Assembly: GCA_006969905.1 (NCBI GenBank)
Contig: CP030887.1
Span: 2,218,730 to 2,282,729, forward strand
From: Balneolaceae bacterium
GTDB lineage: Bacteria > Bacteroidota > Rhodothermia > Balneolales > Balneolaceae
Direction of reading: 5' to 3'
Length of the DNA stretch: 64,000 nt
This document shows positions 59,804-64,000 of this stretch, piece after piece (position 1 is the stretch's first letter; each line of letters opens with the position of its first letter). Position numbers and translations under genes: made by a program. The notes below the pieces were generated by a model, which was given only the letters and a program-made list of their open reading frames with translations, searched no databases and had not been told where the DNA came from.

Positions 59804-60013
59804 TTCCTTAACTAAACCCTTTAATTACAAATAATTTATATCCTCAATTATGATTCAAGCACAGAGCTAAAATATAAAATATATCTAAGACTAAAAATTT
59901 ATTTAGCCAAGACTAAATAATAAAACCTATAAAGAGGGGAACAGAGATTCATCAGGTGGCAGGAGTTGGTAACCACTATTGATATTGTCGACTTACCACA
60001 TTAATAATCTGGA

Positions 60014-60829: not shown

Positions 60830-60900
60830 TTTAAAGATGAAGAGCGGAGCGGATTCATCTTCAACGGTCTGTATATGGTGCGTTGCCGTCCAGCAGGGCT
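60830..60900 (-). repeat. Eroded cassette junction: 36-bp palindrome plus half of a short attC-like site
   Basis: 60830-60865 is 31/36 identical to 61776-61811; the adjacent GGTCTGTATATGGTG parallels GGCTCGCATATGGTG, but the partner arm is missing. Confidence 0.7.
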
Positions 60901-60901
60901 G

Positions 60902-61660
60902 CTATGATTTTTTAGCCTTTGTTATATGCTTTTCTTTATTTCTTACAAATATTAATTTGTGTCTACTTTTCGGGTTTTCACGTTGTTCGATTTCGAATCT
61001 GTCAATTGATTTAATCAGTGGTGTGAGTTTTTCAAATCCATAATTTCTAGAGTCAAAGTTGGGTTGCTTTTTCTGTATCAAACTTCCAACGTCTCCAAGA
61101 AATGCCCAACCGTCTTCATCTGATAAATCCCTAATAGTTGTTGATATTAGATTTATTTCCTTTTTAGTAATCTTATCTATTTCCGGTTCATTTGATTCTT
61201 TACTTTCTACTTTTTCTTCAGTTTGTTTCTTTAGGATTTCAATGTAAATGAATTTGTCACACGCTACTATAAATGGATTTGGAGTCTTTTTTTCTCCGAT
61301 TCCTATCACTTGCATTCCAGCCTCTCTAAGTCGTGTTGCTAATCGAGTGAAGTCACTGTCACTTGAAACAAGACAAAATCCATCAACTTTTCCGCTATAA
61401 AGAATGTCCATAGCGTCAATTATCATGGCAGAATCAGTCGCATTTTTACCTTTTGTATATCCGTATTGTTGAATTGGAGTTATTGCATTTTCTAAGAGCA
61501 GGTTCTTCCACTTGGTTAAGCCTGGTCTGGTCCAATCTCCATAGATTCTTTTTATTGTTGGGTTACCATATTTGGTAATTTCTTCCATCATTTCTTTTAC
61601 ATGAGCAGAAGGAATATTGTCACCGTCTATTAAGACAGCCATATTTGAATTTGTATTCAT
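60902..61660 (-). CDS. NYN (LabA/DUF88) RNase-domain protein with C-terminal OST-HTH/LOTUS domain
   Basis: LIDGDN, RIYGDW, KNATD, SSDSDF; GWAFLGDVG...RNYGF. Confidence 0.92.
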   Translation of the reverse strand: MNTNSNMAVLIDGDNIPSAHVKEMMEEITKYGNPTIKRIYGDWTRPGLTKWKNLLLENAITPIQQYGYTKGKNATDSAMIIDAMDILYSGKVDGFCLVSSDSDFTRLATRLREAGMQVIGIGEKKTPNPFIVACDKFIYIEILKKQTEEKVESKESNEPEIDKITKKEINLISTTIRDLSDEDGWAFLGDVGSLIQKKQPNFDSRNYGFEKLTPLIKSIDRFEIEQRENPKSRHKLIFVRNKEKHITKAKKS

Positions 61661-61680
61661 TTAGTCTTTTTAGTTATTGC

Positions 61681-61783
61681 ATATAACGTGGCTGGGCTAA
61701 GTACAGTGGTTATACCATTGAATTTAGTCCAAGTTGGGATGAGTTGCTACGCAACTTTGTACTTAGCCCAGCCACGTTGGAGA
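61681..61783 (-). repeat. Long att-like site with 21-bp perfect inverted repeat
   Basis: AACGTGGCTGGGCTAAGTACA (61685-61705) pairs with TGTACTTAGCCCAGCCACGTT (61758-61778). Confidence 0.8.
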
Positions 61784-61811
61784 TGAAGAGCGGAGCGAAT
61801 TCATCTCCAAC
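61776..61811. repeat. 36-bp gene-less palindromic mini-element
   Basis: GTTGGAGATGAA-gagcggagcgaa-TTCATCTCCAAC. Confidence 0.85.
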
Positions 61812-61871
61812 GGCTCGCATATGGTGTCGTGGCTGACGTTAGGAAGCCATGCACTATATGCATTGTTGTGC
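61805..61871 (-). repeat. Short attC-like site (67 bp)
   Basis: Minus strand: GCACAAC aat GCATATAG TG-CATGGCT loop AGCCACGACA CCATATGC gagcc GTTGGAG; has an unpaired spacer and a bulged base. Confidence 0.72.
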
Positions 61872-61880
61872 CTAGTGTTT

Positions 61881-62906
61881 TTATTTTTCTTCTTTGTATG
61901 GACCTAAAAACTTGTCCCCGTTAAAGTGAACCAAGTGGTCTGGATTATCTGCAATCCAAACTTCAGTTTCCCAAGCGATATCAGCCATAAATTGTCGGAA
62001 CTTCGGTCTGTTCAAAAATGCTGTAACATACACAATATCAGCTTTGCAGTCCTTTGTCAACTTTTGAAGTTGAATTAGCCGTAATTCACTGATTGGCCCT
62101 GACGAGTGGACAGCTTCAATTAAGTAAAGCCAATTCTTTTTCTTAGAATAGGCAATCACATCTGGTAATTCTTCGTGTGAAATTTCGAAGAAGTTCAACT
62201 TTTCAAGTTTTTCTTTCTCCAAGTACAGATATTTGTCAGAAGTGTCGCCAACATAGAGGATTTCTGCACCATGTCCATATCTTGGAAGAAAATCTTCAAT
62301 TATTGCCTTTTGTAAATCGTTGTGTTCTCCTGCGGAAAAAGTTAGCTCGCCACCCGAAGGAAGAGTCACATTAACTTTTGCTATTTCCCTTTGGCGTTTA
62401 AGTTTTTTACTGAGAGGCTCGATATTCTTGAGCTTGTCAGATACCATTTTCTCCCAATTATTTGAACCAAATTCTCTAAGAAGTTCGGCATATGTTGGGT
62501 TGATTGAATAGCCCCTTGTCGAGTCGTTGGTTGCTGAGTTTGGGCTAGATTGTAAAACGATTTCTGCAACCGTTAGCAACTTGAGGTCTTTTCTTCGAAT
62601 GTCATCATAAGAACCCGAGCTAATGTCTTCTCCAAAATGCTCGTTGACATAGATGATTATATCCCTTGTTTTCAAGGAATGACCACTATTTAAATCTTTT
62701 GCACGTTTGAAATCTGAGAGCTTTTTAATGTCACCACTTGCTAGAAACGCGATTGCCATTCTTTCCAACCTTCTCGGGGTTGAATCCAATGGAATTCCAA
62801 ATGTCTCAAGAATAAAAAGTGTGGTGTTTATCAGTTCCTGTACCTCTTTGCTTTTCTCCCTATAAGTTTTAGATTTATCGGGACTGATATACTGCTTCAT
62901 TCTCAA
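61881..62906 (-). CDS. BsuBI/PstI-family type II restriction endonuclease
   Basis: FSAGEHNDLQKAIIEDF, YVGDT, LPDVI...WLYLIEAVHSSGP, IAWETEVW; likely ATG at 62900. Confidence 0.88.
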   Translation of the reverse strand: MRMKQYISPDKSKTYREKSKEVQELINTTLFILETFGIPLDSTPRRLERMAIAFLASGDIKKLSDFKRAKDLNSGHSLKTRDIIIYVNEHFGEDISSGSYDDIRRKDLKLLTVAEIVLQSSPNSATNDSTRGYSINPTYAELLREFGSNNWEKMVSDKLKNIEPLSKKLKRQREIAKVNVTLPSGGELTFSAGEHNDLQKAIIEDFLPRYGHGAEILYVGDTSDKYLYLEKEKLEKLNFFEISHEELPDVIAYSKKKNWLYLIEAVHSSGPISELRLIQLQKLTKDCKADIVYVTAFLNRPKFRQFMADIAWETEVWIADNPDHLVHFNGDKFLGPYKEEK

Positions 62907-63906
62907 ATAGTTTTAATTGGTCGTTTTCCGTAATGACATATTGGGCTTCAAGACCGTCTGTCAAATGATTTTTGATGTTTAGTGCCAAATGATATGCGAA
63001 GTAAGGCGCAACAGCATTTCCAATTTGGTTAAACTGATGTGTTTCTGTTCCTGAGAACACAAACCAATCAGGAAAACTTTGAAGTCTCGCAGCTTCTCTA
63101 ACAGTAATTCTGCGTCTTCTCCCATCCTTTAATCGAACTCGATGCATGTCTCCTGTTGCACCTGCTAAGTTTCTACATGTCAATGTTCTTGCAGGTCTAT
63201 CTAAGTATAAGTCTCTTGGATTTATGCACTTGGAAGCCTTTTCATACTTGGCGACATATCTGTCCATGGATTCAGTAAAGAACTTAGAGTCTTCATTAAA
63301 TTGAAAAGCGAGCTCCCCTAATGCTTGACCTGCCGTTACCTTTCTATTTACCTTTTTTGGTAGGTTGATTTTTTTCTTTGACCCGATTACTATAACTCGT
63401 TCTCTGTTCTGTGGTACTTCGTAGTTCAAAGCATTCAAAAGGGCATAATTGATAAAGTACCCTAAGCTTTCAAGTTCTTCTATGACTTCCTTCAAATACC
63501 ATTTATTCTTGTAAAGCATTCCACGAACATTCTCAAACAACAGGACTTCAGGGTCAAGTTTTCTGATTGCAGATAAGAAAATTGGGAATCCATCTCTAGA
63601 ATCTTTCAAGCCAAGCTGCTTGCCACCAACACTAAATGGCTGACAAGGTGGGCCACCAATTACGACATCCGCCTTTGGGTATTCCGATTCTACTGTCAGC
63701 TTTTCGTTGAAGCATTCTCCAATCAAGTTCTTATTGTATGTCTGGGTGGCTGGTTCGTCCATTTCATAACCAATAGTTCGAAACCCATGAGCTTCGAAAC
63801 CAAGGGAAAGTCCACCGCAACCCGCAAAAAGGTCAACTACTGTTTTATTCAAATCAGAGTCCACCCAAGGCTTCAACTTTTCATTTATCTCTTCCCAATA
63901 TTCCAT
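62875..63906 (-). CDS. DNA (cytosine-5)-methyltransferase
   Basis: Motifs FAGCGG, GGPPCQPFS, ENV, QNRERV, REAARLQSFP, IGNAV. Confidence 0.95.
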   Translation of the reverse strand: MEYWEEINEKLKPWVDSDLNKTVVDLFAGCGGLSLGFEAHGFRTIGYEMDEPATQTYNKNLIGECFNEKLTVESEYPKADVVIGGPPCQPFSVGGKQLGLKDSRDGFPIFLSAIRKLDPEVLLFENVRGMLYKNKWYLKEVIEELESLGYFINYALLNALNYEVPQNRERVIVIGSKKKINLPKKVNRKVTAGQALGELAFQFNEDSKFFTESMDRYVAKYEKASKCINPRDLYLDRPARTLTCRNLAGATGDMHRVRLKDGRRRRITVREAARLQSFPDWFVFSGTETHQFNQIGNAVAPYFAYHLALNIKNHLTDGLEAQYVITENDQLKLFENEAVYQSR

Positions 63907-63954
63907 TCTCGAAAGTTACGAATTTGTGATGTGGTTTCCATTTCTTCACATTAG

Positions 63955-64000
63955 GCACAACGTGGCTGGGCTAAGTACAGTGGTTATACCATTGAATTTA
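63955..64000 (-). repeat. Second copy of the long att-like site (truncated by window end)
   Basis: 63959-64000 is identical to 61685-61726. Confidence 0.85.

Follow-up and report, generated by a model that had tools for sequence, protein, structure and literature searches.

The DNA analysed here is a stretch of 64,000 nucleotides (the window, C1:2218730-2282729) from the genome of a member of Balneola (Balneolaceae), which is 3.49 Mb long and assembled as a single contig. The last 3.2 kb of the window contain the far end of an integron-like array, with the recombinase gene and the attI site located 4 kb past the window (Table 1). Between positions 60000 and 64000 all genes are found on the minus strand, and the array ends at a divergently transcribed tyrosine recombinase gene. 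In the restriction-modification (RM) cassette, Pfam matches were obtained to PF00145 (3e-63) and to PF06616 and PF17728, and the protein of the NYN-LOTUS cassette matches PF01936 (3e-41) and PF12872 (8e-20), with no exact-protein match in other assemblies. The array cassettes (61881-63906 and L001:6200-10126) all look like defence genes.

Table 1. Features of the array and related sites. Plain numbers are positions in the window; C1 numbers are positions in the contig.
Feature	Position	Strand	Description
Tyrosine recombinase	C1:2286824-2287666 (L001:10095-10937)		280 aa, divergent from the array
Cassette 1 from the recombinase	beyond the window		ParB-like 406-aa protein and Mrr_cat protein
Cassette 2 from the recombinase	beyond the window		AAA_21 ATPase
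Cassette 3 (RM)	61812..63960	-	C5 DNA methyltransferase (62875-63906) and BsuBI/PstI-type restriction endonuclease (61881-62906)
Cassette 4 (NYN-LOTUS)	60866..61686	-	protein at 60902-61660
Short attC of the RM cassette	61809..61872	-	~64 nt; R'' GGCACAAC at 61865-61872, R' GTT at 61809-61811
36-bp palindrome	61776..61811	-	12-bp arms, 12-nt loop; read directly from the sequence
Long inverted repeat (putative attC of U127)	61685..61778	-	94 nt; 21-bp perfectly complementary arms, 52-nt spacer
U127, candidate gene-less mini-cassette, with bounding GTT...GTT	61685..61811	-	127 nt
U127, cassette proper (TT...G)	61687-61810	-	124 nt
Next U127 copy, start only	63959..64000	-	clipped by the window end; complete at C1:2282688-2282814
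Last attC of the array, hybrid	60863..60929	-	predicted not to fold (-5.3 kcal/mol, no L stem)
U127 head remnant	60830..60865	-	small hairpin only, GAAG allele; long inverted repeat lost
Dispersed U127 copies	C1:1533050, 1975509, 3100034		each abuts a diverged attI remnant
attI remnants	C1:1533177-1533280, 1975636-1975760, 3099880-3100000, 2468022-2468291		decayed, scattered over the chromosome

At the junction between the RM and NYN-LOTUS cassettes (61685-61872), three elements follow each other back to back and share AAC/GTT motifs, as reported in the initial annotation: a short attC site, a palindrome of 36 bp, which was confirmed as described, and a long inverted repeat. The palindrome has its GTT in common with the long repeat and its AAC in common with the short site. 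This arrangement is not due to chance, the 127-nt unit made up of the palindrome and the long repeat being present six times in the genome with 99-100% identity. The short site, of ~64 nt, is real and folds with the spacer and bulge ascribed to it. The initial description needs correction only for the long site, which does have perfect 21-bp arms, but comprises 94 nt and not ~103. In fold predictions, the short attC of the RM cassette has, as single-stranded DNA, an R-box stem of 4-5 bp, an internal loop that is unpaired, and an L stem with a bulge; in the short sites of the gene cassettes in general, the R stem is short, the spacer is unpaired, and the L stem has bulges or mismatches. The stem predicted for the long repeat has no unpaired spacer, internal loop or bulge, and the conserved 52-nt loop that it closes contains a small inner hairpin (GTTGC-GTA-GCAAC).

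An integron cassette begins with the TT of a G^TT and ends with the G of the attC that belongs to it, and the R'' box of this attC complements the first bases of the same cassette, since both meet in the circular form. This complementarity can be used to assign each site to its cassette. The NYN-LOTUS cassette begins with GTTATATGC and its attC has the R'' box GCATATAAC, and the first bases of the RM cassette, GTTGTGCC (63951-63961), are complementary to its R'' box. The same applies to all four gene cassettes, over 8-9 nt (GTTATATGC/GCATATAAC, GTTGTGCC/GGCACAAC, GTTAGGCTC/GAGCCTAAC, GTTGTGCTC/GAGCACAAC). Together with the unit between them, the five have an attC of the form RYYYAAC...GTTRRRY with an R'' box complementing their own first bases over 8-12 nt, and the same rule holds in the array of a relative. 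As R'' is found in the short site, and the cassette start just after the long repeat, the attC belonging to the gene cassette is the short site; the same boundaries leave the long site outside the gene cassettes, with the palindrome and the long repeat between them. Each gene cassette evidently has exactly one attC, the short one. The long site at the 5' side and the short site at the 3' side that had been noted for the gene cassettes are indeed seen for three cassettes of the array (two in the window and one beyond), and the first cassette joins attI directly. The alternating two-site architecture read from this pattern had to be abandoned, and of the functions suggested for it the empty spacer cassette is the one retained: judging from these boundaries, the palindrome and the long repeat are one separate gene-less integron cassette, which we call U127.

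U127 contains a single reading frame starting with ATG, of 13 codons, the start codon of which is missing in other species; no reading frame is conserved, and the unit carries an attC of its own. The first 11 nt of U127 are paired with its R'' arm, and the palindrome corresponds to the 5' end of U127, TTGGAGATGAA, paired with the extended R'' arm, TTCATCTCCAAC, around a loop of 12 nt. These two segments are separated by only 12 nt, and therefore appear as a "36-bp palindrome". The 12-nt loop of this small hairpin is the sole 'cargo' of U127, which, as far as its sequence indicates, contains little beyond its recombination hairpin. Folding of both strands, as recommended in the initial annotation, predicts that the circular 124-nt form is one continuous and perfect stem of 30 bp closed by the 12-nt and 52-nt loops, with energies of -41.6 (top strand) and -43.0 kcal/mol (bottom strand). 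The integrated form would be this circle opened at G^TT, with the same stem then seen as a palindrome beside a long inverted repeat. The edges of the unit are sharp at GTT...GTT (gene strand) in the six genome copies, which have unrelated flanks, and the same exact edges and unrelated flanks are observed in 26 aligned copies from nine genomes. We thus consider it likely that the junction is composed of an ordinary cassette recombination site, the short attC, followed by U127 as a gene-less cassette of 124 bases.

The compensated changes that both stems accumulated across species, while keeping their pairing, bear out the selection on pairing suggested initially. In the small hairpin these variants are GTTGGAG/CTCCAAC, GTTGAAG/CTTCAAC and GTTATAG/CTATAAC, with compensated double changes in 3 of its 12 pairs, and in the long repeat they are AACGTGG.../...CCACGTT, AACGTGCC.../...GGCACGTT, AACGTTCC.../...GGAACGTT and AACGATCC.../...GGATCGTT, where 13 of the 18 modelled pairs have substitutions in both partners with pairing kept, and 95.4% of cells are paired. 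Over all modelled pairs, pairing holds in 95.8% of cells, and both partners have changed in 16 of 36 pairs; many of the double changes were inherited throughout entire subfamilies, and these tallies therefore count sequences and not events. The covariation score is 0.345, against 0.105 for shuffled data and at most 0.046 with the partners slid, in a model-based alignment that leans towards the modelled structure. In the MAFFT alignments one arm of the long repeat was mis-registered between two subfamilies, because of which RNAalifold lost the long-repeat stem, and arm-by-arm pairing and the model-based alignment were used instead. Taken as sequence comparisons, these data demonstrate that the pairing of both U127 stems is under selection.

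The strand asymmetry of U127 is confined to its two loops. In two copies from a congener (L020:4326-4452 and L021:6305-6432) the 12-nt loop is inverted (GAGCGGAGCGAA vs TTCGCTCCGCTC), and the loop of the long repeat has the usual orientation. The small loop is thus not the orientation determinant. The flip possibly results from inversion between the 12-bp arms or from template switching, and is a small echo of the inversion system initially envisaged, but nothing in the data suggests such a system.

The second short-site/palindrome pair, reported at the far end of the array (60830-60929), is also real, but it is decayed, and the adjoining attC is a hybrid that is predicted to no longer fold, its 5' half resembling the attC of the first cassette and its 3' half that of the RM cassette. 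The compensatory G-C to A-T change described in the second palindrome copy is present at 60830-60865, alongside two uncompensated changes (CAAC to TAAA), and is explained by the GAAG allele being normal in other species. No attC was found after the next gene, and the NYN-LOTUS cassette is probably fixed in place.

Three of the six genome copies of U127 are in the array and three are dispersed. Comparison of the dispersed copies with each other and with those of the array gives no more than one difference in 127 bases. The attI remnants that they abut are mutually diverged, and so U127 must have arrived long after the remnants diverged, that is, recently, although the identity among copies could partly result from gene conversion. 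In the remnants at 1533177, 1975636 and 3099880 a full U127 is found at the crossover point, and the 2468027 remnant has part of the small hairpin. Three of the four remnants (all except the 1533177 copy) keep the first codons of an integrase gene.

A covariance model of U127, built from four species, retrieved 30 full copies in relatives, all 30 oriented alike with respect to the integrase or the attC next to them. Among 29 copies with inspected context, 19 follow an attC, nine are at attI or an attI remnant, and one is inside a gene. In the latter case, found in a congener, a conserved reading frame is split by 125 nt (TT...G) at CAAGTG^TTAGGCG; five other species of the genus keep the site empty and uninterrupted (CAGGT|TTTAGG). 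This comparison places the crossover between the G and the TT of G^TTAGG, as in an R' box, with no duplication beyond the shared GTT, which matches an integron-type insertion at a secondary GTTRRRY-like site.

In the array of a congener, U127 is present at attI and at four later junctions. One further junction of this array has a single attC directly followed by the next cassette, with matching boxes (GTTAGCGGC/GCCGCTAAC) and no U127; in Balneola, a U127-less junction would read as attC joined directly to TTATATGC and the like. The order of short site, palindrome and long site is therefore not invariant, with this single-attC junction in a relative and the direct joining of the first cassette to attI in the present genome, and the single-attC junctions anticipated elsewhere do exist. 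Across the family, U127 was found in 18 of 151 genomes and 5 of 43 genera, with 1-17 copies each, a patchy distribution resembling that of a mobile element. The concern that the long site is a widespread repeat was justified in this respect, but not in that it would be unrelated to cassette boundaries, to which it is tied. Marine metagenome contigs also carry U127, often at contig ends, since assemblies break at the repeat. The highest count, 17 copies in several clusters, was seen in a single Balneolaceae genome (G152). Judged from the comparison of its copies, U127 is mobile, with defined unit boundaries, a site preference and a fixed orientation, and appears to be the most mobile cassette of the array.

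The recombinase of the array is Xer-like, with archaeal XerA and VchIntIA as its best relatives among solved structures. It aligns with VchIntIA (2a3v) in two blocks (12-179/11-178 and 203-276/245-318), between which it has 23 residues versus 66 in VchIntIA. The IntI-specific insertion, or additional domain, is therefore missing (~43 residues fewer). In the 2a3v structure, this insertion of VchIntIA contacts the extrahelical bases. The protein also scores below the curated cut-offs for integron integrases (TIGR02249, 205 bits vs 265; NF040815, 218.6 vs 220). Due to the absence of the insertion and to these scores, the activity of this recombinase on folded attC sites is assumed here. Its homologues have 73-79% identity across Balneolaceae and 43-50% across Bacteroidota, and a quick look for direct repeats beside the latter, in distant Bacteroidota, gave nothing clear in the way of cassette arrays. 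No other close intact integrase was found in the genome.

The putative attI lies beside the integrase gene and joins the first cassette. It extends ~95 nt upstream of the start codon, and its conservation in 16 Balneolaceae loci reaches as far as an invariant AAC|A, after which the sequences differ; in 3 of these 16 loci the first cassette is U127. We also considered that the palindrome could be the native right half of attI, which was rejected because other sequences come after attI in 13 of the 16 related loci.

On this basis, we propose that U127 is probably a non-autonomous and largely selfish cassette, moved in trans by the Xer-like integrase of the array. The recombinase would cut and join U127 at G^TT like any other cassette, and U127 would land at attI, at the R' box of other attC sites, and rarely at other places that resemble GTTRRRY. 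As replication resolves integron recombination, one sister chromosome would keep the original while the excised copy re-inserts, so that the number of U127 copies can rise in a manner resembling that of a non-autonomous transposon. The gene/U127/gene pattern of the arrays would be produced if attI is quickly taken up again by U127 whenever a gene has been captured, and if pairs of U127 in tandem collapse. In this scheme we infer the array recombinase as the catalyst, single-stranded hairpins as the substrate, and the mainly selfish character of the element.

Across two arrays U127 is present at ~80% of junctions, an occupancy that is high for a purely selfish element, and a useful role could be considered. 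It is found at 3/3 inner junctions here and at 5/6 junctions inspected in a relative. The cassette may have been kept by selection for a role in the array, as a transcript-stabilising or processing hairpin, an insulator, or a cassette that carries a promoter, as demonstrated for gene-less cassettes of Vibrio and Treponema. U127 would move as a cassette in this case too, and so this explanation overlaps with the one we prefer, and differs only in why U127 is common. Besides the occupancy, it would account for the strong conservation of the 52-nt loop across species and for the presence of a strong hairpin just upstream of each defence gene. However, a scan of U127 revealed no sigma-70-like promoter and no intrinsic terminator, inspection by eye gave no convincing match to Bacteroidota-type -33/-7 promoter motifs, and no Rfam family was matched between 60500 and 64000. 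Furthermore, copies are found at dead attI remnants without downstream cassette genes and inside a disrupted gene, one array junction lacks U127, the small loop works in either orientation, and most integrase loci of the family are devoid of U127. A selected role therefore seems unlikely to us as the main reason for the abundance of U127.

Movement by a system other than the integron is much less probable still. U127 has a hairpin at each end, a fixed orientation, and neither terminal inverted repeats (its ends share only GTT/AAC) nor a target duplication, and the genome encodes five proteins with a Y1_Tnp domain. These features would be compatible with an IS200/IS605-type palindrome-associated element or a REP-like repeat moved by a Y1 (HUH) transposase with a preference for GTT. 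Yet no U127-like sequence is found within 1.5 kb of the five Y1_Tnp genes, with which only chance 9- to 12-mers are shared. U127 also follows the integron rule, with an R'' box complementing the start of the cassette, and 28 of the 29 copies are exactly at attC or attI crossover points. There is also no IS110-family transposase in the genome. A phage origin of U127 was discarded after no match was obtained in viral contigs. The least probable explanation is a composite region of short site, palindrome and long site, with two different sites used by each gene cassette, since the fixed order of the three elements at three junctions of this array is outweighed by the R''/R' complementarity placing the gene cassette boundaries outside U127, by U127 occurring at attI, at attI remnants and inside a gene without the short site, by the single-attC junction in a relative, and by the first cassette having attI, and not a long site, at its 5' side.

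U127 has parallels among known systems. Gene-less cassettes are known from Vibrio superintegrons and Treponema integrons, and some of them carry promoters (bioRxiv 10.1101/2023.11.21.568050; PMC6557892). U127 likewise is a discrete unit bounded by G^TT, with its own attC and no reading frame, placed between gene cassettes. In contrast to these, only 12 nt of U127 are not part of the site, its 5' end and R'' are paired over 12 bp so that the circle would be a single hairpin, its attC has no unpaired spacer or bulges, no promoter was detected, and many near-identical copies are present inside and outside the array. What is unusual here is thus not a cassette without a gene, but the combination of no cargo, no unpaired attC features and a MITE-like spread. 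The literature searched gave no description of a cassette stripped down to a perfect hairpin and amplified in the manner of a MITE.

With classical integrases, the features of canonical attC sites that stay unpaired (UCS, EHBs and VTS) help to determine how efficiently a site is used and which strand is chosen (PMC5027507, PMC2727003). The site of U127 has in common with canonical sites the AAC...GTT inverse core sites, a palindrome with a terminal loop, a crossover at G^TT, and a bottom strand that is predicted to fold slightly more stably than the top strand. It differs in the absence of an unpaired central spacer and of extrahelical bases, the stem being perfect over 21 bp when integrated and over 30 bp in the predicted circle, and in having a conserved loop, not a variable one. 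Classical integron integrases also insert cassettes at secondary, or attG, sites (bioRxiv 10.1101/2022.09.11.507474). The U127 copy at G^TTAGG inside a chromosomal gene, off att sites and with the empty site in relatives, is a similar case, but it is a natural event in a Balneola genome and involves a gene-less cassette and a non-classical integrase. With MITEs and REP/BIME palindromes U127 shares its short, non-coding, hairpin-forming and multi-copy nature, as well as its patchy occurrence and its breaking of assemblies. Unlike these, it has no terminal inverted repeats, target-site duplication or link to a transposase, and it inserts at integron crossovers.

Sedentary chromosomal integrons with anti-phage defence cassettes have also been described (bioRxiv 10.1101/2024.07.02.601686). 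The present array resembles them in being chromosomal and divergent from a tyrosine recombinase, and in its content of an RM pair, an AAA_21 ATPase, and Mrr-like and NYN-domain proteins, but the host belongs to the Balneolaceae (FCB group) and the recombinase lacks the IntI-specific insertion. Integrons have barely been reported in this family, and a single complete integron, that of Salinibacter ruber, was found in Bacteroidetes proper with IntegronFinder 2.0 (bioRxiv 10.1101/2022.02.28.482270). Our own search of the literature revealed no report of integrons in Balneolaceae.

Integron cassettes are usually viewed as carriers of cargo, and U127 indicates that the machinery can probably also host a non-autonomous parasite of its own. 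It offers a natural test case for attC rules, with a perfectly paired site beside an integrase without the domain that reads unpaired features. From a practical point of view, annotation pipelines would take such adjacent attC-like sites for odd composite junctions. A more tentative and rather unlikely extension is that U127 may be the preferred substrate of integron-like recombinases without the insertion, which would read a fully paired hairpin with the strand set by the 52-nt loop, and that it may act as a portable handle for defence cassettes. If so, the arrays of Balneolaceae would represent an integron variant that recognises its sites by a different logic, in which U127 flanks and helps to shuffle defence cassettes whose own sites are poorer substrates.

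Two other repeats resemble parts of U127. In another congener (L013:1383-1540) we observed a different gene-less cassette of ~155 nt, which has the same small hairpin head and an ordinary, imperfect attC end, and could resemble the ancestor of U127. The second is a repeat family in the genome studied here (C1:1741429-1744126, L124:5430-8126), located ~2.5 kb from another tyrosine recombinase, of 312 aa, and formed by units of 74 nt that are repeated 2-4 times in tandem between small reading frames. Each of these units contains a small hairpin with the same 12-nt loop as that of the U127 small hairpin, and is bounded by GTT on the reverse strand.
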